Assembly: GCA_029210695.1 (NCBI GenBank)
Contig: JARGFH010000031.1
Coordinates: forward strand, 1 to 43,248
Source: Acidimicrobiia bacterium
GTDB taxonomy: Bacteria; Actinomycetota; Acidimicrobiia; Spongiisociales; JAHEDJ01
Reading direction: 5' to 3'
DNA: 43,248 nucleotides
In this document: one piece after another, positions 1,886 through 30,968 of the stretch
Position numbering within the stretch: position 1 is the stretch's first letter
Layout: each line of letters starts with the position of its first letter
Position numbers and translations under genes: made by a program
The notes under the pieces: generated by a model
The model's database searches: none
The model's input: only the letters and a program-made list of their open reading frames with translations
What the model was told of the DNA's origin: nothing

Positions 1886-2092
1886 GTCTGCCTCCTATTC
1901 ACCTTCATCATCCCGCATACCAGCTCCCAGGACATCAGGGGCCGACCCTCACCGTCCCTCAGGGATCTCAGGGTCGTGCCACATGGTTCAGAGTGCTTCG
2001 TGCGGCTTTGCTCGAGCCTCGCCTTCCCGGTTACGGCCAATCGGCATCATTGGCTAATCTATCGACGAGCCCGGCCCACGCCGGGCTTTGAT

Positions 2093-2174
2093 GCCGGGAT
2101 GCCCGAGCGGCCAAAGGGAGCAGACTGTAAATCTGCCGGCAATGCCTTCGGAGGTTCAAATCCTTCTCCCGGCA
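2093..2174 (+). tRNA. tRNA-Tyr(GTA)
   Basis: Acceptor GCCGGGA/TCCCGGC, anticodon arm GCAGA-CTGTAAA-TCTGC, long variable arm, GGTTCAAATCC T arm; CCA not encoded; TAATCT -10 at 2055-2060. Confidence 0.97.
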
Positions 2175-2270
2175 CAGCAACGTTTACAATCCATGAGCAA
2201 CGGTCCTTGAGTACAGGCCGAGAAGTGCTTCGCACTTCTCAAACGTGCCTGGGCCTAAGGGCCCAGGCAT

Positions 2271-2343
2271 GCCCCCTTAGCTCAGCTGGCAGAGCGCCTC
2301 CATGGTAAGGAGGAGGTCTCCGGTTCGAATCCGGAAGGGGGCT
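2271..2343 (+). tRNA. tRNA-Thr(GGT)
   Basis: Acceptor GCCCCCT/AGGGGGC, anticodon arm CCTCC-ATGGTAA-GGAGG, TTCGAAT T loop; CCA not encoded. Confidence 0.97.
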
Positions 2344-2370
2344 CGGTAGGCGGTGAGCGCAGCTCACCGC

Positions 2371-2405
2371 GGTACCAGGTACGAGGCACCAAGTGCCAAG
2401 TACCA
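2371..2405. repeat. Degenerate 7-bp tandem array (RGTACCA family)
   Basis: GGTACCA GGTACGA GGCACCA AGTGCCA AGTACCA. Confidence 0.8.
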
Positions 2406-2473
2406 AAGGAAGAGGGCGAAGCTGGTGCGGTTGGCATCGCCAACCGCCAACGGCTTGCGTAGCAAGCCGCGGA

Positions 2474-2550
2474 GGCGGCGTAGCTCAGTCGGTAAGAGCG
2501 CTCGACTCATAATCGAGAGGTCGGCAGTTCAAGTCTGCCCGCCGCTACCA
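2474..2550 (+). tRNA. tRNA-Met(CAT), elongator type
   Basis: GGCGGCG/CGCCGCT acceptor, CTCGA-CTCATAA-TCGAG anticodon arm lacking the three initiator G-C pairs, encoded CCA. Confidence 0.93.
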
Positions 2551-2579
2551 AGTGAAGAACAGTACAAGGAGAGAATCCC

Positions 2580-3776
2580 ATGGGTAAGGCGAAGTTTGAG
2601 CGGACGAAGCCGCATGTGAATGTGGGGACGATGGGTCATATTGATCATGGGAAGACGACGTTGACGGCTGCGATTACGAAGGTGTTGTCGGAGTCTGGGG
2701 TTGGTGGGGCGACGGCGTTTACGGCGTTTGATGATATTGATAAGGCGCCGGAGGAGCGTGAGCGGGGTATCACGATTTCGATTGCTCATGTGGAGTATGA
2801 GACGGCGAATCGTCATTATGCGCATGTGGATATGCCTGGTCATGCTGATTACATCAAGAACATGATTACGGGTGCTGCGCAGATTGATGGGGCGATTTTG
2901 GTGGTGTCGGCGGCTGATGGTCCGATGCCGCAGACGCGTGAGCATGTGTTGTTGGCTCGTCAGGTTGGGGTTCCGTTCATTGTTGTGTATATGAATAAGA
3001 CGGACATGGTTGATGATGATGAGCTTCTTGATTTGGTTGAGTTGGAGGTTCGTGAGTTGTTGTCGGAGTATGAGTTTCCTGGTGATGAGTTGCCGGTGAT
3101 TCGTGGTTCGGCGTTGAAGGCGCTTGAGGGTGGGGATGAGGCTTCGGTTGCTTCGGTTATGGAGTTGATGGAGGCGGTTGATACGTATATTCCGGTGCCG
3201 GAGCGGGATACGGAGAAGCCGTTTCAGATGCCGATTGAGGATGTGTTCTCGATTACTGGTCGGGGGACGGTGGTGACTGGGAAGGTTGAGCAGGGGATTC
3301 TCAAGACGGGTACTGAGGTTGAGATTGTTGGGATTCGTCCGACGCGCAAAACGGTGGTGACCGGGGTTGAGATGTTCCGGAAGTTGTTGGATGAGGCTCG
3401 GGCGGGTGACAATGTTGGGTTGTTGTTGCGGGGGATTGGGAAGGATGATGTGGAGCGGGGTCAGGTGATTTGTATTCCTGGTTCGATTACTCCGCATACT
3501 GATTTTGAGGCGAATGTGTATGTGTTGACTCGGGATGAGGGTGGCCGGCATAACCCGTTTTTCCCTGGGTATCGGCCGCAGTTTTATTTCCGGACGACGG
3601 ATGTGACTGGGTCGGTGACGTTGCCTGAGGGTACTGAGATGGTGATGCCTGGTGATAACACGACGATGACGGTGGAGTTGATTAATCCGATTGCTATGCA
3701 TGAGGGTCGTGATTTCGCGATTCGTGAGGGTGGTCGGACGGTTGGTGCTGGTCGGGTCACCAAGATTCTGAAGTAA
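2580..3776 (+). CDS. tuf: Elongation factor Tu (copy 1, tRNA-linked)
   Basis: [27 protein letters not shown] motifs; 398 aa; AGGAG RBS. Confidence 0.99.
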
Positions 3777-3808
3777 GTGACCGGACGGGTCTGGTGGCCC
3801 GTCCGCTC

Positions 3809-3836
3809 GTACCGGGTACTGGGTACTGGGTACCGC
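3809..3836. repeat. 7-bp tandem array GTACYGG
   Basis: GTACCGG GTACTGG GTACTGG GTACCGC, following hairpin CGGACGGGTC-TGGT-GGCCCGTCCG (3782-3805); also present at 26120-26147. Confidence 0.85.
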
Positions 3837-3862
3837 GAACGAGTGAAGCGAGAGAGCAAACA

Positions 3863-4024
3863 ATGCCAAGTGACAAGAGACCGGCCATCACGCTGGCTTG
3901 CGACGAATGTAAGCGTCGCAACTATGTGACGGTGAAGAGCAAATCGAACACCCGTGAGCGGCTGGCGCTCAAGAAGTACTGCCGCTGGTGCGGATCGCAC
4001 ACGCTGCATCGCGAACATCGCTGA
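3863..4024 (+). CDS. rpmG: 50S ribosomal protein L33 (Zn-binding CxxC form)
   Basis: [21 protein letters not shown]...[11 protein letters not shown] at 3863. Confidence 0.96.
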
Positions 4025-4099
4025 ACACGGGGCACGACCCCGACCCGCGGTGCTAGTTTGGCCGCAGGATTCCGCGGGCGGAACAAGCGGGGCCTGATT

Positions 4100-4130
4100 G
4101 AAGAAGGCGGGCGACATGCCTGCCTTCTTC
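4100..4130 (+). terminator. Intrinsic terminator-like hairpin after rpmG
   Basis: GAAGAAGGCGGGC-GACAT-GCCTGCCTTCTTC. Confidence 0.7.
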
Positions 4131-4203
4131 GCGTCCGGTCGGGTGCAGGGAACTCCTCAGCGTCCAGGTGCCAAGTCCGAAGTACCGGGTACCCTCTTGG
4201 CCC

Positions 4204-5046
4204 ATGGGCATGGAAGAACTCCAGGGACGCGTATACCGGCGAAAGTTTCGGGCGGATCGTTCGACGATCTCGGCGTTCATCGAGGCGACCGGCGATGATC
4301 CTGCCCGCTGGCCGAACATCGCCCCACCGGGGCTGGCCGCCGCCGCGGTCTTCGCCGTCGCCCCGGCCTTTCTCTTCGACCCGGATGTCGGCGAGTTCTC
4401 GCGGATCCTTATTCATGCCGACCAAACATTCCGGTGGCTCGCTCCATGGGAGACCGGAGCCGACTACGCCGTCACCGGGACCGTCGATCGGGTGCGCATG
4501 CGAGGCGGAGCGGCGTGGGTGACCTTCTCGGTTGGAGTGGTAGCCGCAGGCAACCGGGTCCTCGATTCCACCTCAACGTTTGTCATGTCGGACCAGCGCC
4601 CCGACTCCGAGGTAGCGGAGCGAAACGAACCCGGTCCTCTCGAACGGGCAGACGAGATCCGTCCGGTTTCCTATCCATCCAGCGGGGAGTTGCCCGAAAC
4701 CGTCCGCTCGGCGAGCCGAGCCGATCTGATCCGGTACGCGGCTGCCAGTCGCGACTTCAATCCATTGCACTGGGATCACGAGACTGCCCGCAATGCCGGT
4801 CTGCCAGGCGTAGTGGTGCACGGCTTGCTCATGGCATCGTGGATGCTGCAAACCGCGACGGCGATCGTATTCCCGTCCGCTGGGCGGCCGATCCACGCCG
4901 CCAAGTTCAGGTTCCGCAACCCGCTCTTCCCCGGAGAAGCAGCTTCGATCACCGGTGCAATCGGCGCCGCACCGGGCCCGGTCAGTCTCGAACTCACATC
5001 CAATTCGGGACCGCTGGTCGGCGGCCTGATCACGGTGGAGCGGTAA
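4204..5046 (+). CDS. Double hot-dog MaoC-family (R)-hydroxyacyl dehydratase, HadA/HadB-like fusion
   Basis: N-terminal domain (ILIHADQTFRW) plus catalytic MaoC motif YAAASRDFNPLHWD...VVHG; same locus position as mycobacterial hadABC; start taken at ATG 4204. Confidence 0.8.
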   Translation: MGMEELQGRVYRRKFRADRSTISAFIEATGDDPARWPNIAPPGLAAAAVFAVAPAFLFDPDVGEFSRILIHADQTFRWLAPWETGADYAVTGTVDRVRMRGGAAWVTFSVGVVAAGNRVLDSTSTFVMSDQRPDSEVAERNEPGPLERADEIRPVSYPSSGELPETVRSASRADLIRYAAASRDFNPLHWDHETARNAGLPGVVVHGLLMASWMLQTATAIVFPSAGRPIHAAKFRFRNPLFPGEAASITGAIGAAPGPVSLELTSNSGPLVGGLITVER

Positions 5047-5050
5047 CCCG

Positions 5051-5617
5051 ATGGAGAATCCAGAAGTCGAACCCGTCGACGAAGCACAGCTGATTCGGAC
5101 GGCTCAGGTCGGCGACAGAAGCGCATTCGAAGAACTGGTTCGAAGACATCAACACGGAGTATTCACCTTGGCTCTGCGACTGGTAAACGATCGGGAGTTG
5201 GCAGCAGACGTCACCCAGGATGCGTTCATCCGGGCCTGGCGCGGACTGCCGCGCTTCCGGGGTGATGCCGCCTTCAAGACATGGATTCATCGGATCACGG
5301 TGAACGCCGCATGGTCGATGAAGAAGCGCACCGGTCGCCACCTGGCCGTTCCTCTCGAGGGTGCTCCCCAGATCGCAGACAAGACGCTGTCGGGCGACCT
5401 CGAGCGAGCAGGGGAGAACCTCGAACTTCGCCACCGCCTGCGGGCTGCACTCGATGAGCTACCGCGTCCCCAGCGCACGGTTGTGGTGCTCAAGGACATC
5501 TACGGTTGGTCGCACGGCGAAATTGCTGAGTCGTTGGGTATCACCGTCACCGCCGCCAAGGTCCGCCTGCATCGCGCCCATCATCGGCTCCGCCAACACC
5601 TCGAAGGTGAATCATGA
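5051..5617 (+). CDS. ECF RNA polymerase sigma factor
   Basis: GDRSAFEELV, DVTQDAFIRAW, FKTWIHRITVN region 2; region 4 HTH WSHGEIAESLGITVTAAKVRLHRA. Confidence 0.93.
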   Translation: MENPEVEPVDEAQLIRTAQVGDRSAFEELVRRHQHGVFTLALRLVNDRELAADVTQDAFIRAWRGLPRFRGDAAFKTWIHRITVNAAWSMKKRTGRHLAVPLEGAPQIADKTLSGDLERAGENLELRHRLRAALDELPRPQRTVVVLKDIYGWSHGEIAESLGITVTAAKVRLHRAHHRLRQHLEGES

Positions 5618-5961
5618 AGGGCATGCTCGCCCGGGAGTGCAAGCGGGTCAGAGGGCGGATCAGCGAAGTCGTGCTCGGCGATGAGCGGCTGTCGGTTGAG
5701 GACGAACGACATGCGGCGGCCTGCCTTTCTTGCCAGGCAGAGATTGCTCGCTACAGAGCCATCGACCGCGCTTTCATCGCTTTGCAGCAGGAGGTTGCCA
5801 TCGCCCCACCCGGGTTGGTGAGCAAGATCATGGCGGGGCTCGATCGCCCGCCCATCCCATGGTTTCGTCGCCCGGGCACCGTCTCGGTGTCGGCAATGTC
5901 GGCCGTTGCTGTGGCGACCACGGTGGCCCTCGCCATTCGTCGCCGCCAGGCAGCAGCTTGA
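5614..5961 (+). CDS. Zinc-binding anti-sigma factor (ZAS) with C-terminal membrane segment
   Basis: HxxxCxxC (HAAACLSC), upstream Cys, hydrophobic C-terminus, ATGA overlap with the sigma gene. Confidence 0.8.
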   Translation: MKGMLARECKRVRGRISEVVLGDERLSVEDERHAAACLSCQAEIARYRAIDRAFIALQQEVAIAPPGLVSKIMAGLDRPPIPWFRRPGTVSVSAMSAVAVATTVALAIRRRQAAA

Positions 5962-7315: not shown

Positions 7316-7744
7316 GTGGGTAGAAAAAAACTGAGTACCGTCTTGAAGCTGCAGATCCCGGCCGGGCAGGCCAGCCCCGCCCCTCCGGTGGGTCCTGCGC
7401 TCGGCCAGTACGGTGTCAACATCATGGACTTCGTCAAGGCCTACAATGAGGCTACGGCGTCGCAGATTGGGACAATCGTTCCGGTCGAAATCTCGATCTA
7501 CGAGGATCGGACGTTCACATTCGTCACCAAGACGCCGCCCGCCGCGGTGTTGCTGCGCCAGGCGGCGCGGATCGAGAAGGGCTCGCCCGAGCCGCAAACC
7601 ATCAAGGTCGGAAAAGTGACTCGCGCCCAGGTGCGCGAGATCGCGGAGACGAAGATGGTCGACCTCAACGCCAACGATGTTGATGCAGCCATGAAGATCG
7701 TCGAGGGCACGGCCCGTTCCATGGGTCTTTTGGTCGAAGGCTAG
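7316..7744 (+). CDS. rplK: 50S ribosomal protein L11
   Basis: [20 protein letters not shown] motifs. Confidence 0.98.
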
Positions 7745-7789
7745 GAACCCTCGACCGGGATGAACAGCGGCGCGACTGCGTGCCGGAAG

Positions 7790-7827
7790 ATGGGAGGTTT
7801 CGCACAAGGCGGAGCCGTTCGAACCAC
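7790..7827 (+). promoter_or_regulatory. Probable L1-binding autoregulatory site
   Basis: TGGGAGG...GAACCAC internal-loop hairpin just before the rplA RBS, resembling L1 operators. Confidence 0.55.
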
Positions 7828-7838
7828 AGGAGAGAGAC

Positions 7839-8555
7839 ATGCCCAAGCACGGCAAGCGATATCGGGATCTGGTACAGCGGTATGACAAAGAGACCGCCTA
7901 CTCCCCGGAAGAAGCCATCGAGTTTGTTCGGATGTTCGCAGATGCGAAATTCGACGAGAGCATCGACGTAGCCTTCAAACTCGGAATCGACCCCCGGCAG
8001 GCAGATCAGATCGTTCGTGGAACTGTCAGCCTTCCTCACGGCACGGGCCAGGTGGTGCGCGTGGTCGTGTTCGCGCAGGCGGATAAGGCCCGCGAGGCCG
8101 AAGCCGCCGGTGCCGACCTGGTCGGGGGTAGCGAACTCGCCGAAGAGATCGCAGGAGGACGGGCTCTCGACTTCGACATCGCCATCGCTACTCCGGACAT
8201 GATGGCTGAGGTCGGGAAACTCGGGCGGGTGCTGGGCCCTCGGGGCCTGATGCCGAACCCCAAGGCCGGAACCGTGACGGTGGATGTCGCCAGAGCGGTT
8301 CAGGAGTTCAAATCCGGCCGCATCGAGTACCGCAATGATCGATTTGGCAACGTCCAGGTTCCGATCGGCAAAGCGTCGTTCGAAGCCGAAGCGCTCGTGA
8401 CGAACCTCGGCGCCTTGGCCGCCGAACTTCAGCGAGTTCGTCCCGCCTCCGCCAAGGGCCGCTATTTCCGTCATCTTGCCATCTCGTCGACGATGGGCCC
8501 CGGGATCAAGATCGACCCGGCTCGCCTAGAAGATCTCGTCAAGGCGAGTAAATAG
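7839..8555 (+). CDS. rplA: 50S ribosomal protein L1
   Basis: [36 protein letters not shown]. Confidence 0.98.
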
Positions 8556-9057: not shown

Positions 9058-9125
9058 ATTCTGACAACTTGCTGTTCCCAACAGGAGGGCGTACGCTCCG
9101 TGCCAACAACTCCAACCTCGGTTCT

Positions 9126-9175
9126 GAGACCGCCGGTGCCTTCGGGCTCAAAGGGTTCGCCCGCCTGCGTAGACC
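9126..9175 (+). promoter_or_regulatory. L10 leader (rplJL autoregulatory RNA)
   Basis: GAGACCGCCGGTGCC-TTCG-GGCTCAAAGGG-TTCG-CCCGCCTGCGTAGAC matches the L10 leader pattern; upstream of rplJ. Confidence 0.75.
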
Positions 9176-9243
9176 GCCTCCCACAGGGGTCCCCGTCTCA
9201 TCATGACCGAGGGACCTTTTCTAATGTGAGGAGGAGTACGCGT

Positions 9244-10053
9244 ATGCCGAGACCTGAAAAGGTCCAAGCAGTTGAAGAAATCAAGGAGCGTCTCGAGAAC
9301 TCTGAGGCGACCTTCCTGGCCGAGTACCGGGGACTGTCCGTGTCCGAGCAGCAGCAGCTGCGTCGCGGATTGCGGGCTGCAGATGCCGAGTACAAGGTTG
9401 TGAAGATGTCGCTGGCCCGCCGCGCCGCGACCGAACTCGGACTCGATGAACTCATCGAGTCGATGCACGGGCCGACGGCGCTTGCGTTCGCGAATTCGGA
9501 TGCGGTTCCGGTTGCCAAGGTTTTGAAGGACTTCGCCAAAGAGCACGATCGTCTCGTGCTCAAAGTTGGTCTGATGTCCGGCAAGCTCTTGCCGCCGGAA
9601 CAGGTGAGCAAGCTCGCCGAAATCGAACCGCGCGATGTCTTGCTCGCCAAGATTGCGGGAGCTGCCAAGGCGCCGCTCAGCAAGATGGCAGGCATGCTCG
9701 GGTCGTTTGTGCGGGATTCCGCTTCGTTGTTCTTCCAACTGCTCGAGATAAAAGAATCGAGTGAACCGGCGCCGGCCGCTGAAGTCGAGGCACCCGCCTC
9801 GACAGACCGGGTCGAGGCTGCTGCCGACCCCGCCGAGGTTTCCGCTCCGGCAGACAAGGCCGAAGTCGCCGAAACGACGACCGATGAAGCAGCCGAGGGC
9901 GAGGAGCCCACAGCTGAAGTTGATCAGACCCATTCGGCCGAGGCAGAACTTGCCGAAGCCGGCGAAGGTCCCGAGGAAGAGGCCGAGTCAGACGACGAGT
10001 CCGATTCCGACTCCCAAAATGATGACAAGGCCGACCAGGCCGAGGAGGAGTAA
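9244..10053 (+). CDS. rplJ: 50S ribosomal protein L10 with long acidic C-terminal extension
   Basis: [34 protein letters not shown] before ATG 9244. Confidence 0.96.
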
Positions 10054-18236: not shown

Positions 18237-18803
18237 TCAGTCGAGTGCCTGCTCCAGGCGGCCGAGCAGATCCGGCATGACCTGCAGAAACGGCTCGGTC
18301 CCGACCATCGCCGCGCATCTGGCCCTGATAGAGGTCCAGTTGATACGGTCGCGCGCAGCTACCGCGAGAGCAAATGCTTCGTTCCATGTGACCGCCGTTC
18401 CGTCGGTTGCCTGGAGCAGCCGGTCCATCATCAGGTCGTTGACGGAGATGATGCGTACGAGTAGTCCTCCCAGATCGATGACCTCGGGCGGTTCCTCGCC
18501 CAGGAGCGTGTCGCCGGGGACCTCAATCGCCACAGCTCCCTTCGGCGACTCGAATACCCAATGGCGGCCTCGTTTCTCCAGACCAGCCGACCGGATGCGT
18601 TCTTCATCGCGGGAGGTGACCGGACCGACGACGTCGACGTCCGTGATCCGACCTATACCCGTGTGAGTCAATTGGGCGCCGCCGCCGACGAGGACGAGTG
18701 GGGCGGCGGTGAGGGCATCGATGGCCGCGACGGCAAACAAGATTCGCTCAGCTGAATCGGCGGGCGCCTCCAATGCTTGCTTCAGCAAGTCCGCGGGTGT
18801 CAT
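18237..18803 (-). CDS. Putative Pol-beta-superfamily nucleotidyltransferase (toxin-like)
   Basis: LVLVGGGA...RITDVDVV (GG plus DxD) motif; ATGA-coupled to the upstream HTH gene. Confidence 0.6.
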   Translation of the reverse strand: MTPADLLKQALEAPADSAERILFAVAAIDALTAAPLVLVGGGAQLTHTGIGRITDVDVVGPVTSRDEERIRSAGLEKRGRHWVFESPKGAVAIEVPGDTLLGEEPPEVIDLGGLLVRIISVNDLMMDRLLQATDGTAVTWNEAFALAVAARDRINWTSIRARCAAMVGTEPFLQVMPDLLGRLEQALD

Positions 18804-19141
18804 GTGAGCAGGTTCTCCTCAGTCGACGTGTCTATGCCCCGCCGGCGCTTCCACTCGAGACGTTTGGCCGCTTCGCGGTTCGTGATTCCGCGCGCCCCCA
18901 GACGTTCTGAACCTTGCTGCATGCGAGCCTGTACGGCGTCGAGGCTCGAGTTCGTGCGCAATGACAAGCTCAGCTCGAGGCCCAGGGCACCTGCAACAAC
19001 CTCGATCGTCGAAAGTCTCGCGTCGACCTTCCCCAGCTCGAGACGCGAAAGGTTGGGCTGGGCAATACCGGTCAGGTCGGAGAGTTGGGCGAGCGTGAGT
19101 CCCATCAGCCTTCTGGAAGCACGAAGTTCTGAACTGATCAT
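18800..19141 (-). CDS. XRE-family HTH regulator (antitoxin-like), leaderless
   Basis: LRASRRLMGLTLAQLSDLTGIAQPNLSRLELGK HTH; extended -10 lies 7 nt before the ATG. Confidence 0.85.
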   Translation of the reverse strand: MISSELRASRRLMGLTLAQLSDLTGIAQPNLSRLELGKVDARLSTIEVVAGALGLELSLSLRTNSSLDAVQARMQQGSERLGARGITNREAAKRLEWKRRRGIDTSTEENLLT

Positions 19142-19169
19142 ATAAGATATATTACCATATATGATCAGT
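19133..19169 (-). promoter_or_regulatory. Operator inverted repeat overlapping leaderless promoter
   Basis: ACTGATCATATA-N13-TATATGATCAGT; minus-strand TGnTAATAT at 19157-19149. Confidence 0.8.
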
Positions 19170-19242
19170 AGTCGGATGGCAGTGAGCGGGTGCGTTCCAG
19201 GTTTGGAATGCTGCTCATGGCCTATTGCCTATTGCCCATGTC

Positions 19243-21507
19243 TCAACGCACTGCCTCGAGTCTCCTGGCGGCCGGCAAGGTCAGCGTGAAGACGCTCTCA
19301 TCGCCGGTGTGGAAATAGGTGAGCGACCCATCCATCAATTCAGCGAGTTGGAGTGAGACCGAGAGGCCCAGACCTACAGAGGCAGGCTGGCTCGGGATGT
19401 TGTGCGCCCTCTGGTAGGGCTTGAAGATCCGATCATGCGCATCGGCCGGAATCGGGTTGCCCGAATCATGAACACGGATCACAACGGTGTGTTCTTCTTG
19501 AGCGAACGTCACCCGAACCCGTTCGCCGCCGTATCGAACTGCGTTGGTCAGGAGATTGCGGAGAATCTGGCGAACACGCGTTGCATCCGCCCAGGCCGGC
19601 CGCACGTTACCGTTGCTCGATACGGACACCTTCTCCGCCGGGAGCAGGGTGTTGCCGGCGAGAACGGACTCCGTCTCTCTTCGCAGATCCACTTCACGTC
19701 TAATGATGGTCAGACCACCCGTCTCCGCTCTAGCGGAAACGAGGAGGTCTTCGACGATATTGGCCACGTCGAGGCTCTGATCGGCGATCAGCGCGATCAG
19801 TTCCCGGACCTCGCGCTCGTCGAATTCGGCCCCGTTCTCGCGCAGTTCATGAGCGAGACCAACCACCGCGGTCAGCGGCGTGCGCAACTCGTGGCTGACG
19901 CTGGCCACGAACTCGTCTTTCGACCTGACCAGTTCTTCGAGGCGATGCCTGTTCTGTTGCCTCTCCCAGAACGCCCCCACCAACGCCGCCGCCGTGTGGA
20001 GCAAGGCTCTCTCGGCTTCTTCCCAGTTGCGCACTTCTAGGTAGTCCGTGAACCCGATCGATCCGGCCCATCGCCCGGAGACCAAGATCGGGATGTTGAG
20101 TTCGACCTTCTCGTCTCCGTACTCAGACCCATTCGCGTTCGGGTCCGTCTCCGGAAACATGGTGAAGTGGTGTCCCTCGGCCAGTCGATCACGCATCTCG
20201 GGGAACTCGTCGTAACAGAACACGTAGTTCTCATATTTGCCGGAGTCCGCGTCGAACCAGATTTCGGGGTCGACGAGTTCCTGGTATCCGGGTCGAATGT
20301 ACTCGTGGGTGACCCGGGCGTAGAGTCGGTCGTCGTCACCAACGAAGTTCTCATCGACGAAGATCTTTTGAGCCTGCATGACCTGCCCGAGGGCGTGGAG
20401 GGTGGCGTCGATCGCCTGTTCATCTTCGTTCATCAGGAGCACTCGCGCGGACTCCGCGATGGCTCGTTCGAACCGGATGCGTGCGGCCTGCGCTTCGGCT
20501 AATTCCTCCAAGCGCTGTCGCTGACCGCGTCGCTCCAGAAAGGCAGCAATCGCAGAAGCGGCCGCCTGGAGCACCGCGATGTCATCCTCATCCCACTCAC
20601 GCGGTTCGAGGTCGTCGGAGACGCCGATGAGTCCCACCCATGTTCCTTCAACAAAGATGGGGATGTCGATTTCCGACTTGATTCCCGAGTGCTCGTACTT
20701 CGCCCGCTCGGTTCCTCCTAGATCTTCCACGCGAAATGCAAACACCTCTCCGGCTTCCATGTGGCGCCGCGCCACCGGCATCGTCGACCACGGGACGTCG
20801 GTCCAGAAACCCTCGGTTGGAGAGTCGGTCCTTGCCCGGGCGGCTTCGTAGAGGATCGACGTGCACAGTCCGATACCCGGTTGCGTGGAGTTCATCTCCA
20901 CGAACACCGATCGTGCCTCCGTTCCTTCAAGTAAGGCGTTCAGCGCAGCCTCGATCGCGTCCTCGTGTTTGCCCTCGTTGAGAATCCTGGTCGCTTCGGC
21001 GACTGCTTGTTCGTAACGAAGGCCGCGAGAGGCGATGTGTTCCGCCCGCCGCGATCGTTCGTCCATGCTGAGCGCCAGGTAGCCGATGAGCAAAAGGATG
21101 AATACCCGGGTCGGCACGAGTTCCGGCGGAGCGGGCGGGTCGGTGAATGGAATCGCCAGCGAGTACATCCCGGCCGCCACCGCCGGTAGAAGTCGCCCAA
21201 GCTGTCGTGGGAGGAGCAGGGGATACACAGCTACCAGCACGACATACCATGGCAAGAAGAGACTCCGCACGCCATCGGTCTGGATCAGCAGGATGAACCC
21301 ACCGATGAGTATGAGCGCCGCTCCAATGACAAGCGGTGGATGACGCCCGGTCTCCGACATGTAGGCGAGACCCACCACGCCGGCTGATGCTACGAGTATC
21401 CAGGGGACCACGCGCGAGTCGCCCTGGAGCACCAGCACAAACGCACCCTGACCAGCGACGCCGATGAGAGCGAGAGCCTGAATCGGAGGTCTCTTGATGC
21501 GGTGCAA
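19243..21507 (-). CDS. Membrane sensor histidine kinase with two GAF domains
   Basis: N-terminal TMs; two GAF-like repeats (IDIPIFVEGTWVGLIG / LNIPILVSGRWAGSIG); H-box SHELRTPLT, NLLTNAVRY, GLGL; start (TTG) uncertain. Confidence 0.9.
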   Translation of the reverse strand: MHRIKRPPIQALALIGVAGQGAFVLVLQGDSRVVPWILVASAGVVGLAYMSETGRHPPLVIGAALILIGGFILLIQTDGVRSLFLPWYVVLVAVYPLLLPRQLGRLLPAVAAGMYSLAIPFTDPPAPPELVPTRVFILLLIGYLALSMDERSRRAEHIASRGLRYEQAVAEATRILNEGKHEDAIEAALNALLEGTEARSVFVEMNSTQPGIGLCTSILYEAARARTDSPTEGFWTDVPWSTMPVARRHMEAGEVFAFRVEDLGGTERAKYEHSGIKSEIDIPIFVEGTWVGLIGVSDDLEPREWDEDDIAVLQAAASAIAAFLERRGQRQRLEELAEAQAARIRFERAIAESARVLLMNEDEQAIDATLHALGQVMQAQKIFVDENFVGDDDRLYARVTHEYIRPGYQELVDPEIWFDADSGKYENYVFCYDEFPEMRDRLAEGHHFTMFPETDPNANGSEYGDEKVELNIPILVSGRWAGSIGFTDYLEVRNWEEAERALLHTAAALVGAFWERQQNRHRLEELVRSKDEFVASVSHELRTPLTAVVGLAHELRENGAEFDEREVRELIALIADQSLDVANIVEDLLVSARAETGGLTIIRREVDLRRETESVLAGNTLLPAEKVSVSSNGNVRPAWADATRVRQILRNLLTNAVRYGGERVRVTFAQEEHTVVIRVHDSGNPIPADAHDRIFKPYQRAHNIPSQPASVGLGLSVSLQLAELMDGSLTYFHTGDESVFTLTLPAARRLEAVR

Positions 21508-22765: not shown

Positions 22766-24877
22766 ATGAGCAACAAGGATGCCTTGACGCACTTGCGTCA
22801 GATTCCTCTAAGCCGTACCCGCAACATCGGGATCATGGCGCACATCGACGCGGGCAAGACCACCTTGACCGAGCGGATCCTCTACTACACCGGTAAGACC
22901 TACAAGCTGGGTGAAGTCCACGAGGGCGCCGCGGTCATGGATTGGATGGAGCAGGAACAAGAGCGCGGCATCACGATCACTTCTGCCGCGACGACCTGCG
23001 CCTGGCACGACCATACGATCAACATCATCGATACGCCCGGTCACGTGGACTTCACAGTCGAGGTCGAGCGTTCCCTTCGAGTACTCGACGGCGCGGTGGC
23101 GGTATTCGATGCCGTGGCCGGGGTCGAGCCGCAGTCGGAGACGGTCTGGCGACAGGCCGACCGCTATCGAGTACCCCGCATGTGCTTCATCAACAAGATG
23201 GACCGGACTGGTGCGGACTTCTATTCGGCGCTCGCTTCAATTCAAGATCGGCTCGAGGCGCGTCCTGTTGCTCTGCAGCTCCCCATCGGTGCGGAAGCGG
23301 AATTCGACGGCGTCATCGACCTGGTCGAGATGCGCGCCCACATCTGGAAGGGCGACGACGGCAAGCACTGGGAAACCACCGATATTCCCATCGACATGCT
23401 CGACAAGGCGAAGGAGTGGCGTCTGTCGATGCTCGAAACCCTCGCCGACAGTGACGAACAGATCATGGTGAAGTACCTCGAAGAGGCTGAGATTTCCGCA
23501 GACGAGATCCACTCCGCGGTGCGGAGTGGTATCCGGCGGATGGACTTCACGCCGGTGCTGTGTGGTTCGGCTTTCAAGAACAAGGGTGTTCAGCCCCTTC
23601 TCGACGCCGTCATTCTCTACCTTCCGAGTCCGGCCAACCTTCCCCCGGTCACCGGATTCAAGCCGGGCGATGAAGACGTCTTGCTGTCCCGTGAGCCAGA
23701 TGACTCAGCTCCCTTTGCAGCACTGGCATTCAAGATCATGAGCGACCAGCACGTCGGCAAGCTCACCTACTTCCGTGTGTATTCCGGCCACGCCTCCAAA
23801 GGCGATTCGATCCTGAACACCAGCAACGGCAAGAAAGAGCGTCTCGGCCGTCTCCTGCGAATGCATGCCAACAGCCGTGAGGACATCGATGACATCTTCA
23901 CCGGCGACATCGTGGCCACGGTTGGGCTGAAGAACACCACGACGGGCGACACCCTGAGCGTGGTCAGCCATCCGATTCAGTTGGAGTCGATGACGTTCCC
24001 GGCGCCGGTGATCTCGGTTGCGATCGAACCCAAGACCAAGGTCGATCAGGAGAAACTCGGCGATGCACTGCATCGCCTCTCCGAGGAAGACCCGACGTTC
24101 CTGGTTCGGACCGACGAGGAGACCGGCCAGACCATCATCGGCGGCATGGGGGAACTCCACCTGGAAGTGTTGGTAGACCGCCTCGTCCGTGAGTTCAAGG
24201 TCGAAGCCAACGTCGGCCGGCCTCAGGTTGCGTACCGTGAGACGATCAAGAAAGCGATCGAAAAAGTCACGATCCGCTACGTCAAGCAGTCCGGCGGCAA
24301 GGGCCAATTCGCCCATGTGGTCATCAGCCTCGAGCCGACCGGTCCCGGAGGCGGATACGAGTTCGTCGACGAGGTCAAGGGCGGCCGTATACCGCGGGAG
24401 TTCATCCCATCGGTCGACACGGGCATTGAGGGTGCCATGGATCAGGGCGTCCTGGCCGGCTACCCACTGGTTGACGTGCGAGCCCATCTCGTTGACGGAT
24501 CGGCGCACGACGTCGACTCGAGCGAAATGGCGTTTCGTATTGCGGGATCCATGGCGCTCCAGGAGGCTGCCAAGCAGGCGGGCGTCAAACTGCTCGAACC
24601 GATCATGGCGGTCGAGGTTGTCACCCCTGAGGACTACATGGGTGACGTGATCGGAGATCTCTCCTCCCGGCGGGGAAAGATCGACAACATGGGTCAGCGG
24701 GGGAATGCTCGCGTCGTCGAGGCAGAAGTGCCGCTGGCTGAAATGTTCGGATACGCCACCGACCTGCGGTCGAGAACCCAGGGTCGCGCAACGTACACCA
24801 TGCAATTCCATTCGTACCAAGACGTACCGGACCAGGTCGCTCAGGAGATCGTGGCGAAGGTTCGCGGGGAAGCCTAA
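22766..24877 (+). CDS. fusA: Elongation factor G
   Basis: [31 protein letters not shown]. Confidence 0.99.
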
Positions 24878-24890
24878 GGAGGGCTCGACT

Positions 24891-26087
24891 ATGGGTAAGG
24901 CGAAGTTTGAGCGGACGAAGCCGCATGTGAATGTGGGGACGATGGGTCATATTGATCATGGGAAGACGACGTTGACGGCTGCGATTACGAAGGTGTTGTC
25001 GGAGTCTGGGGTTGGTGGGGCGACGGCGTTTACGGCGTTTGATGATATTGATAAGGCGCCGGAGGAGCGTGAGCGGGGTATCACGATTTCGATTGCTCAT
25101 GTGGAGTATGAGACGGCGAATCGTCATTATGCGCATGTGGATATGCCTGGTCATGCTGATTACATCAAGAACATGATTACGGGTGCTGCGCAGATTGATG
25201 GGGCGATTTTGGTGGTGTCGGCGGCTGATGGTCCGATGCCGCAGACGCGTGAGCATGTGTTGTTGGCTCGTCAGGTTGGGGTTCCGTTCATTGTTGTGTA
25301 TATGAATAAGACGGACATGGTTGATGATGATGAGCTTCTTGATTTGGTTGAGTTGGAGGTTCGTGAGTTGTTGTCGGAGTATGAGTTTCCTGGTGATGAG
25401 TTGCCGGTGATTCGTGGTTCGGCGTTGAAGGCGCTTGAGGGTGGGGATGAGGCTTCGGTTGCTTCGGTTATGGAGTTGATGGAGGCGGTTGATACGTATA
25501 TTCCGGTGCCGGAGCGGGATACGGAGAAGCCGTTTCAGATGCCGATTGAGGATGTGTTCTCGATTACTGGTCGGGGGACGGTGGTGACTGGGAAGGTTGA
25601 GCAGGGGATTCTCAAGACGGGTACTGAGGTTGAGATTGTTGGGATTCGTCCGACGCGCAAAACGGTGGTGACCGGGGTTGAGATGTTCCGGAAGTTGTTG
25701 GATGAGGCTCGGGCGGGTGACAATGTTGGGTTGTTGTTGCGGGGGATTGGGAAGGATGATGTGGAGCGGGGTCAGGTGATTTGTATTCCTGGTTCGATTA
25801 CTCCGCATACTGATTTTGAGGCGAATGTGTATGTGTTGACTCGGGATGAGGGTGGCCGGCATAACCCGTTTTTCCCTGGGTATCGGCCGCAGTTTTATTT
25901 CCGGACGACGGATGTGACTGGGTCGGTGACGTTGCCTGAGGGTACTGAGATGGTGATGCCTGGTGATAACACGACGATGACGGTGGAGTTGATTAATCCG
26001 ATTGCTATGCATGAGGGTCGTGATTTCGCGATTCGTGAGGGTGGTCGGACGGTTGGTGCTGGTCGGGTCACCAAGATTCTGAAGTAA
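24891..26087 (+). CDS. tuf: Elongation factor Tu (copy 2, str operon)
   Basis: Protein identical to 2580..3776; AGGAGG RBS. Confidence 0.99.
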
Positions 26088-26170
26088 GTGACCGGACGGG
26101 TCTGGTGGCCCGTCCGCTCGTACCGGGTACTGGGTACTGGGTACCGCGAACGAGTGAAACGAGAGAGCAA
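24891..26170 (+). repeat. 1280-bp direct repeat, copy 2
   Basis: Matches 2580-3859. Confidence 0.9.
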
Positions 26171-29831: not shown

Positions 29832-30968
29832 ATGGGCCAGAAGACACATCCTTACGGCTTCCGCATCGGTATCGTCACCGACTGGAAGTCCCGCTGGTAC
29901 AGCGACAAGGACTACACCGAGCTTGTCAATGAGGATTGGAAGATCCGCGACTATCTCGATGGCGAGTTGAAGCGCGGCGCCGTCAGCCGCATCGAGCTCG
30001 AGCGCACTCGCGACAAGGTGCAGGTCGACGTTCACACCGCCAGGCCGGGCGTTGTCATCGGCCGCAAAGGGTCAGAAGCGGAGCGTCTCCGGGACGGACT
30101 CGAGAAGCTCACCGGGCGCCGCATCAAGCTGAACGTCATCGAGGTAAAAGACCCGGAGACCGACGCACAGCTCCTGGCGCGAGGTGTTGCCGACCAGATC
30201 GAAAATCGGGTTGCCTTCCGGCGTGCGATGAAGCGCACCGTCGCTACCGCCATGAAAGCCGGCGCCGAAGGTGTGAGGGTCGAGTGCAAGGGCCGCCTCG
30301 GCGGCGCCGACATGGGGCGTCGCGAGTGGTACCGCGAGGGACGGGTTCCGCTGCACACGCTGCGCGCCGATGTCGATTACGGCGTTGCCACGGCTCGCAC
30401 GACGGTCGGAGCTATCGGCGTCAAAGTCTGGGTCTATAAGGGTGACGTCGTGGCCACCTCGAAAACCACTCGCGAGAAGATCGCGGCCGAAGCGGCGCTG
30501 GCCACCGGTGGCCCCAGTCGGGGTCGGGTCGCTCCTGCCAAGTCACGGGCTGAAGCCGCCGCCGGAAGTGATAAGATTCCCCGCCTCATTGAAGCCGGTG
30601 GCGGCAAGCGAATCATTGAAGCCGGCGGCGGGAAGCGCAAGGAGACAACGCGACGGGTCGAGTCGACCTCGCGGAAGATCGCTCCCGAAGAGGCAATCAG
30701 CCAGTACGAAGAAGCACGTGACGTGTTCGATTCTGAGGTCTCCGCGGTGGAGGCACCGGTCGAGGAGATCACGGAAGAAACACTCATTGCAGCGGAGCCC
30801 GAAACGGTTACCCCGGCATTGGAAGGAACGGTTGAGGAGGCGCCGGCAGAAGCCGTGGTTGAGGCAGCCGTTACCGGTGCTGAAACCGCCGTGGAAGAGG
30901 CACTCGACGCCGACGCAGCCGAAGTGGTTGAAGGCGGGTCGAGCGAAGTCGACGAAGGAGGCGAGTAG
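29832..30968 (+). CDS. rpsC: 30S ribosomal protein S3 with long C-terminal extension
   Basis: [34 protein letters not shown]. Confidence 0.98.

Follow-up and report, generated by a model that had tools for sequence, protein, structure and literature searches.

tuf, which encodes EF-Tu, is the textbook case of codon optimization by selection at its strongest. The closest described system to the one considered here is the concerted evolution of the tufA and tufB copies of Salmonella and E. coli, reported in six phyla, in which co-oriented copies are identical from the boundary of the coding sequence (CDS) onward (PMC6053082, in the portion available). The present subject is another such pair, tuf1 and tuf2, found in a 43,248-nt stretch of DNA from an Acidimicrobiia bacterium (contig JARGFH010000031.1 of GenBank assembly GCA_029210695.1), the whole of which is called the window below. 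How do the two systems compare? The copies in the window are likewise co-oriented and identical from the start codon, but they differ from tufA/tufB in lying 22 kb apart in direct orientation and in an identity that reaches 71 nt past the stop codon. They also have a composition of their own: about 95% of their codons end in G or T, and many of these are avoided by highly expressed neighbors. No compositional consequence is described for tufA/tufB in the available portion of PMC6053082, where the terms "skew" and "GC content" do not occur, and a G/T or G skew specific to tuf did not turn up in the literature, which was searched mainly at abstract level.

The Salmonella genes provide much of the relevant background. 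In the available parts of PMC5485169, their identity ends at the CDS bounds, mismatch repair lowers conversion between them 200- to 1000-fold, and the type of mismatch decides which conversions pass, a filter of the kind proposed below. In mutS strains, conversion was reported at 2e-5 at nt 1126, versus 1-2e-3 at nt 362 and nt 679 (PMC5485169). The rate at nt 1126, a site that by our own reckoning precedes the 3' end of the Salmonella gene (1185 nt) by 59 nt, is 50 to 100 times lower. Two concertedly evolving tuf copies have been reported in Acidobacteria, Actinobacteria, and Chloroflexi, among other groups (PMC6053082, as available).

Other known processes resemble parts of what is seen in the window. 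GC-biased gene conversion is likewise a conversion bias that mimics selection and can prevail over codon preference. It raises G+C on both strands, however, whereas in tuf the G+C content of third positions falls to 0.59 (neighbors, 0.68 to 0.84, typically about 0.75), T goes up, and one strand only is affected. Transcription-coupled strand asymmetry yields the same direction of skew, a coding-strand excess of G+T. It is small, is graded with expression, and covers noncoding transcribed DNA. The tuf bias is instead near total and restricted to one gene, with no gradient across expression levels and with spared flanks that are presumably transcribed (G+T share, 0.38 to 0.58). Fungal repeat-induced point mutation, to which the initial annotation had loosely compared the bias, also affects duplicated DNA. 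Its C-to-T changes hit both strands, preferentially at CpA, and destroy gene function. The analogy breaks down in that tuf keeps C preferentially before A, has undergone A>G and C>G changes too, retains intact open reading frames (ORFs), and is enriched on one strand only.

How extreme is the bias? The third positions of tuf consist of 217 G, 160 T, 20 C, and a single A, so that 377 of its 398 codons end in G or T. The other 45 genes of the window, with 11,441 pooled codons, served as the comparison set. The G/T share at third positions (keto3) is 0.947 in tuf, compared with a mean of 0.494 (standard deviation [SD], 0.044) in these genes, and the C share (C3) is 0.050, compared with 0.392 (SD, 0.045), which corresponds to z scores of +10.3 and -7.6 (against the pooled codons, chi-square 382, p = 1.5e-82). 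The initial annotation had placed both genes correctly (Table 1), had called their composition unlike that of all neighbors, and had counted by hand 5 C at positions 3001-3060 against 20 C at 23281-23340 in fusA; the counts are exact. GC skew is 0.45 to 0.49 in 600-nt intervals inside both copies and roughly -0.1 to +0.1 in most others, and at third positions it is 0.83 in tuf and -0.12 in fusA. "G/T-only" fits the gene better than the original "C-poor," because A and C are both avoided at synonymous sites: GAA encodes 0 of 35 Glu residues, AAA encodes 1 of 17 Lys residues, and four-fold codons ending in A are absent. Leu is encoded by TTG in 20 of 25 cases. The C-free alternatives for Arg (AGR, 0 of 24) and Ser (AGY, 0 of 11) are unused.

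Does the bias scale with expression? It does not: higher expression slightly favors C, and tuf alone flips. At two-fold C/T codons, 11 non-translation genes have a T share of 0.31 and 26 ribosomal protein genes one of 0.29; the value is 0.23 in rpoB, rpoC, fusA, rpoA, secY, and nusG, versus 0.83 in tuf. The C share at four-fold sites is 0.38, 0.42, 0.44, and 0.03 in these four groups, respectively. The bias is strand specific and opposed to the neighbors' preference for C endings, as had been claimed, and it is lacking in single-copy, highly expressed genes (the 26 ribosomal protein genes, rpoB, rpoC, and fusA), in which its presence would have spoken against a cause tied to duplication. Translational selection would produce a bias common to highly expressed genes and C-ending codons for Phe, Tyr, Ile, and Asn; tuf displays neither. 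A milder form of the bias, also noted originally, can be seen at the start of istA. This ORF, part of an IS21-family transposase, ranks second in the window for G/T skew (keto3, 0.67; C3, 0.25; 140 codons).

The C residues that persist in tuf had been described as short C-rich patches. Retention of C is real, but the patches mostly resolve into single C-ending codons that precede A, and the same codons are spared in relatives. C is kept in 12 of the 37 pyrimidine-ending codons before A and in 8 of 143 elsewhere (odds ratio, 8.1; p = 4e-5), and it is kept before A in the tuf gene of an Acidimicrobiales relative, L012, as well (odds ratio, 6.4). We read this as a sign that TpA is avoided where two codons meet. 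The window and L012 have kept six A/C-ending codons in common (ATC for Ile, AAC for Asn, three TTC for Phe, and GAC for Asp), while 1.1 would be expected (p = 3e-4); the other two pairs are alike. The survivors look as if local selection at a few sites were resisting a drive that is strong and general.

Where does the bias begin and end? tuf1 and tuf2 are 100% identical across 1268 nt that begin with the A of the start codon and take in the CDS and the next 71 nt, and they share 0 bases upstream of the ATG. The bias does start where the duplication starts, as was first observed. Complete identity implies that conversion or duplication was recent. The copies are more alike than orthologues, the nearest of which is 79-80% identical in protein among the matches listed, and their identity is bounded by the gene, a combination typical of concerted evolution. 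No further repeat was found in the window (seed 14, minimum length 40). The spacers between the upstream tRNA genes (G+T share, 0.46 and 0.48) and the 29-nt leader of tuf1 (0.38) are not G/T skewed, and fusA is free of skew right up to 13 nt before tuf2. The shared 71-nt tail (0.58) retains 19 C, which stem pairing may explain. Its two hairpins have a minimum free energy (MFE) of -38.7 kcal/mol (z = -3.15; 0 of 200 shuffles as stable), and three GGGTAC repeats at 3809-3833 (copied at about 26120-26144) form the second hairpin in both copies. The hairpins are terminator-like but, having no T run, are not canonical intrinsic terminators. A consensus scan for promoters and terminators over positions 1900-4200 gave one promoter-like and one terminator-like site, no more than in shuffled sequence.

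Is the anomaly peculiar to this bacterium? At least 80 tuf loci of 13 kb each were collected in one scan of genome contigs; the window's own genome is not among the matches listed. In the 72 loci that offer 300 or more neighbor codons, the third-position GC skew of tuf minus that of its neighbors (dSkew3) has a median of -0.016 and exceeds +0.2 in 14 among the matches listed. The highest values belong to metagenome-assembled genomes (MAGs) from Acidimicrobiales (L012, +0.88), Ilumatobacteraceae (L011, +0.65), and Rokubacteria (L057, +0.48). By its third-position skew, 0.83 versus -0.12 for fusA and thus with a different neighbor set, the tuf of the window would be the most extreme case. Actinomycetota with neighbor data lie at -0.16 to 0.00 in 24 of 26 loci, including all such Streptomyces, with L012 and L011 as the only exceptions. 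The neighbors of biased tuf genes in these relatives are compositionally normal. In four tight Acidobacteria clades, fusA-linked and nusG-linked tuf genes have a third-position identity of 0.63 to 0.80, with synonymous sites near saturation, so that setting the identity of the gene body against that of the last 20 codons says nothing about paralogue type.

In a quick IQ-TREE search, the EF-Tu of the window falls inside the Actinomycetota (support, 98), within a seven-member Acidimicrobiia-type clade of topology (L001,(window,L009)) plus (L005,(L012,(L003,L011))). The bias has thus arisen in place within this lineage, and horizontal transfer, against which an EF-Tu tree had been advised as a check, is not supported. 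Sister genes differ: L011 is biased and L003 (support, 98) is not, and the same holds for the window and L009. Biased genes are thus scattered among unbiased ones in the tree, which means that there have been several switches of state. L012 has the layout seen around tuf1 (tRNA-Thr, tRNA-Met, tuf, rpmG, sigma factor, tRNA-Trp, secE, and nusG), and its sigma factor (7577-8119) is 44% identical to the one in the same place in the window. The EF-Tu of the window has uncommon residues within otherwise near-invariant stretches, the first two of which also occur in L009, which has NKCD.

The ends of the gene are instructive as well. The tuf leaders of L012 (5867-6000), L011 (5921-6000), and L003 are A/C-rich (G+T share, 0.31 to 0.35), opposite to the coding region, as are the trailers of L012 and L011; the 134-nt leader of L012 (0.31) includes 41 C. 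In its last 20 codons, tuf has 10 A/C endings in L012, 10 in L011, 15 in L056, and 18 in L016, while the unbiased L003 and L009 have 10 and 11. A rise toward the tail is apparent in 20-codon bins in L025 and L026, too, and the unbiased tail spans about 20 to 30 codons. The window, whose repeat extends beyond the stop codon, has 3 of 20.

The anomaly comes in two flavors, compared across 16 loci. The Actinomycetota flavor (window, L012, and L011) consists of C>T, A>G, and C>G, leading to G/T endings. The T share at two-fold C/T codons is 0.83, 0.81, and 0.50 in these three tuf genes, versus 0.25, 0.15, and 0.05 in their neighbors; the G share at two-fold A/G codons is 0.98 to 0.99, versus 0.69 to 0.89; and four-fold sites hold G and T only, with T (0.54) above G (0.40) in L012. 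The second flavor is restricted to C>G at four-fold sites and is found in eight loci from other phyla (L057, L050, L062, L056, L060, L016, L026, and L059), labeled Rokubacteria, Acidobacteriota, Chloroflexota, Alphaproteobacteria, and Synergistota. Four-fold G in tuf and neighbors, respectively, is 0.94 and 0.50 in L057, 0.72 and 0.30 in L050, and 0.72 and 0.28 in L062. The two-fold T share is unchanged in this group (difference, -0.14 to +0.08; 0.14 and 0.14 in L057), and two-fold A/G codons change little. In the tuf of L057 (6001-7191), four-fold codons nearly all end in G, GGG for Gly included, and two-fold codons keep C. T enrichment bears no relation to G+C content, as several of the non-actinobacterial genomes have 57-63% G+C.

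What could generate such a pattern? The bias is confined to the coding region and lies on the coding strand, and it points to a DNA-level process in a duplicated gene, not to ordinary codon optimization. The cause must be specific to tuf, act on DNA, distinguish the strands, respect the bounds of the gene, and depend on the lineage, and conversion between two copies fits. The best explanation we can offer, tentative and unproven, is a biased, strand-asymmetric conversion of one tuf copy by the other, in which mismatch surveillance acts as the filter. The initial annotation had proposed two mechanisms. Biased gene conversion is still the best candidate, while simple deamination of single-stranded DNA (ssDNA) fails: G stands at 0.60 at four-fold sites, where the purine share of the neighbors would give about 0.40, transitions cannot yield the C>G flavor of other phyla, and transcribed noncoding flanks are unaffected. 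Biased gene conversion is itself known; the new element proposed here is that it may be made strand specific and be directed by the specificity of mismatch repair.

In the proposed scheme, ssDNA of leading (here, coding) polarity from one tuf copy would pair with the antisense strand of the other. Lagging-template gaps, and the polarity of 3' tails at collapsed forks, would be expected to supply such a partner. If the recipient carries G or T and the donor differs, the resulting G/T, G/G, or T/T mismatch would be cut by NucS and the exchange aborted. If the recipient carries A or C, the C/A, C/C, or A/A mismatch would be ignored by NucS and the donor's G or T copied in. New G/T alleles would thereby spread to both copies and A/C alleles be erased, with G versus T and A versus C neutral. 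The predicted equilibrium, G or T at every free coding-strand site, matches the window and L012, including the unused AGR and AGY codons. In lineages with MutS and MutL, C/C would be the missed mismatch, and only G could then replace C, which is possible solely at four-fold sites. Kramer in 1984 and Su in 1988 are said to have found C/C to be the mismatch invisible to MutS.

Several observations argue for this scheme. The substitution pattern equals the specificity of NucS: C>T, A>G, and C>G are favored, and C<>A and G<>T look neutral. Actinobacteria have NucS/EndoMS in place of MutS, and according to the available part of PMC6159521, the enzyme cleaves G/T, G/G, and T/T but neither C/A nor the mismatches behind A:T<>C:G changes. 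This cleavage set is exactly the set of mismatches that would protect G and T alleles. On the leading strand of wild-type Corynebacterium glutamicum, A>G outnumbers T>C by 48 to 13 and C>T outnumbers G>A by 67 to 40 (PMC6159521, Table 1). The NucS data in that part of the paper concern genome-wide replication errors, and a role in biasing conversion between paralogues would be an extension made here. NucS is also reported to inhibit homeologous recombination 5- to 10-fold at 85-90% identity (PMC5290159, as available), and Ilumatobacter coccineus, a member of the Acidimicrobiia, has NucS. The flavor follows the phylum, with a keto shift in Actinomycetota and C>G elsewhere, and the phyla named above as having two tuf copies are among those in which the bias appears here; both count in favor of conversion. 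Low conversion near the end of the repeat is proposed to be the reason that the bias stops before the stop codon in L012, L011, L056, and L016 but not in the window. A wider claim can be framed: conversion between bacterial paralogues would be strand asymmetric, with the mismatch sensor setting its direction (NucS toward G/T, MutS toward four-fold G), and would override translational selection in tuf. We regard it as possible and hold it with somewhat more doubt.

A number of points weigh against the conversion scheme. Each of its steps is an inference of ours, and the sign of the drive assumes a coding-polarity ssDNA partner and abortion of the exchange, not donor-ward correction. The mismatches covered by the available part of PMC5485169 are G/A, C/T, T/T, A/A, C/A, and G/T; the rest of the MutS hierarchy is general background. 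No nucS was seen in the 43,248 nt of the window. Two tuf copies are directly seen only in the window, since biased relatives are known from 13-kb loci alone. tuf next to nusG is taken to imply a second copy elsewhere, yet only 7 of about 27 such loci have a dSkew3 above 0.2, and those from Oxalobacteraceae have values of -0.13 to -0.17. L009, the closest relative among the matches listed, has tuf beside tRNA-Met and rpmG and is nonetheless unbiased, and L025 and L028 present a mild, mixed, keto-like pattern. The first 60 codons of the window's tuf include 0 that end in A or C, so the bias does not fade at the 5' end, where an edge effect acting equally on both sides of the repeat should weaken it. 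Among amino-acid-changing substitutions, those from A/C to G/T and the reverse number 11 and 4 in the window and 7 and 10 in L009 (23 and 12 in three biased lineages pooled, 21 and 20 in three unbiased ones); the excess is suggestive, and the counts are small.

Could the cause instead lie in the transcript? Selection on tuf mRNA or its translation, whereby a C-poor, G-rich message escapes a C-dependent RNase or Rho or serves a special decoding regime, is a rather unlikely but serious alternative. Mycobacterial RNase E cuts before C, and Rho rut sites are C-rich and G-poor. The motif RNCNT occurs 15.9 times per kb in tuf versus 35 to 36 in fusA and rpoB, and the C/G ratio is 0.40 versus about 1.0. 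Limitation to the coding region, recurrence in several phyla, and the sparing of the same few codons across lineages would all be explained, and C-richness in the last 60 nt would do no harm where Rho is concerned, in keeping with the unbiased tails of relatives. Yet the tail in the window is biased, avoidance of A is no less strict than that of C, and the C-free options AGR and AGY go unused. The excess of T over G at four-fold sites in L012 is unlike a maximization of G, L012 and L011 have C-rich leaders and trailers, ribosomal protein genes lean slightly the opposite way with no partial shift, and sister lineages are all-or-none. Avoidance of mRNA structure is a poor fit and was rejected as the main cause: at an MFE of -0.296 kcal/mol/nt, tuf has only about 11% less structure than a recode with neighbor usage (-0.333), while A/C-ending and A-ending recodes reach -0.179 and -0.098.

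Transcription might also act on the DNA itself, through deamination of the nontemplate strand (C>U and A>hypoxanthine), exposed by very heavy transcription of tuf and perhaps further by R-loops on the G-rich strand, with conversion carrying the changes to tuf2. We consider this unlikely. C>T plus A>G on the coding strand is what exposed ssDNA classically produces, as in vertebrate transcription and mitochondria; tuf1 and the tuf of L012 lie directly behind tRNA-Thr and tRNA-Met; and a nontemplate GC skew of 0.45 would favor R-loops. Against these stand the unskewed spacers, leader, and 3' tail, the opposite composition of the L012 leader, the unaffected fusA just upstream of tuf2, and the lack of any graded effect in other highly expressed genes. 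The last 20 codons of L012 and L011 are transcribed and yet spared. Transitions alone give neither more G than T at four-fold sites nor TTG as the main Leu codon, and the C>G-only flavor is out of their reach. Acquisition of tuf from a donor with G/T-ending composition would account for a composition atypical of the genome and for a best protein match of only 79-80% among those listed. It is very improbable, given the position of EF-Tu next to Acidimicrobiia-type MAGs and the native synteny (conserved str and tRNA-rpmG contexts), and no donor genome of such composition was seen, the neighbors of biased tuf genes in relatives being normal. Least credible of all is a real antisense gene that constrains the sense codons of tuf. 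Open frames of 446 and 463 amino acids do exist on the opposite strand, but they are in phase with tuf and follow automatically from the absence of A-ending codons (TTA, CTA, and TCA), which leaves no antisense stops; their ends differ between the copies, and neither matches a Pfam family. Whatever probability these readings leave belongs to causes not yet thought of.

If a conversion drive is indeed at work, it would be a new non-adaptive force in bacterial genomes, powerful enough to overcome selection on codons. Its relevance would extend to rRNA operons, insertion sequences, and other repeats, and the composition of tuf would become a genomic read-out of a lineage's repair system and invading strand. 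If selection on mRNA is responsible instead, tuf is under a specific regulatory constraint that is currently unrecognized. In either case, other phyla have acquired the tuf-only anomaly more than once, its two forms track phylogeny, and codon-adaptation reference sets based on tuf and composition-based detectors of horizontal gene transfer would be misled in these lineages.

Table 1. Coordinates of the tuf repeats and associated features in the window
Feature	Position	Strand	Evidence or remark
tuf copy 1 (tuf1; EF-Tu, 398 aa)	2580..3776	+	Pfam GTP_EFTU, D2, D3; composition
tuf copy 2 (tuf2), identical to copy 1, 13 nt after fusA	24891..26087	+	0 CDS mismatches
Repeat unit 1, 1268 nt, ATG to 71 nt past stop	2580..3847	+	Identical to 24891-26158
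Repeat unit 2, direct orientation, 22,311 nt downstream of unit 1	24891..26158	+	Sequence identity
Two stable hairpins in shared 3' tail	3779..3833; after copy 2, ~26090-26144	+	Folding versus shuffles
tRNA-Tyr(GTA), tRNA-Thr(GGT), tRNA-Met(CAT), directly upstream of tuf1	2093..2550	+	
rpmG (L33), after tuf1, normal composition	3863..4024	+	Pfam Ribosomal_L33, E = 2e-21
fusA, directly upstream of tuf2	22766..24877	+	C3 0.43, unskewed to last 60-nt intervals
Antisense ORF in phase with tuf1, 446 aa	2529..3869	-	No Pfam family
Antisense ORF counterpart on tuf2, 463 aa	24621-26012	-	No Pfam family
IS21-family transposase N-terminal fragment, 140 aa	42765..43187	+	NCBIfam NF033546

The features in Table 1 belong to a translation-gene region of a bacterium with 61% G+C. 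The gene order is tRNA-Tyr, tRNA-Thr, tRNA-Met, tuf1, rpmG, three inserted genes, tRNA-Trp, secE, nusG, rplKAJL, rpoBC, an inserted sensor-kinase block, rpsLG, fusA, tuf2, and the S10, spc, and alpha operons. The EF-Tu domains cover the full length of the protein, with GTP_EFTU, D2, and D3 matched in Pfam at E = 3.8e-63, 1.9e-21, and 1.5e-37. The IS21-family fragment matches NCBIfam NF033546 at E = 1.1e-15 over model positions 4-124 of 294, which is below the cut-off because the ORF is truncated, and has no Pfam match; it stops abruptly past a DWGTIDHAH sequence.

The three genes between rpmG and tRNA-Trp (4168-5961) encode a MaoC-like dehydratase, a sigma factor of the extracytoplasmic function type, and a weak anti-sigma candidate. 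The ORFs of rplJ (9100-10053, 317 amino acids as called) and rpsC (29832-30968, 378 amino acids) far exceed the domains they contain, the L10 domain of rplJ spanning residues 49-147; both lengths rest on the called start codons. Between rpoC and rpsL, the minus strand at 18237-21507 carries an ORF without a family, an HTH_3 regulator, and a 753-amino-acid GAF histidine kinase. This block is an unusual break in the rpoBC-str region: in L001, L005, L017, and L014, rpsL lies within about 300 nt to 1 kb of the rpoC match.

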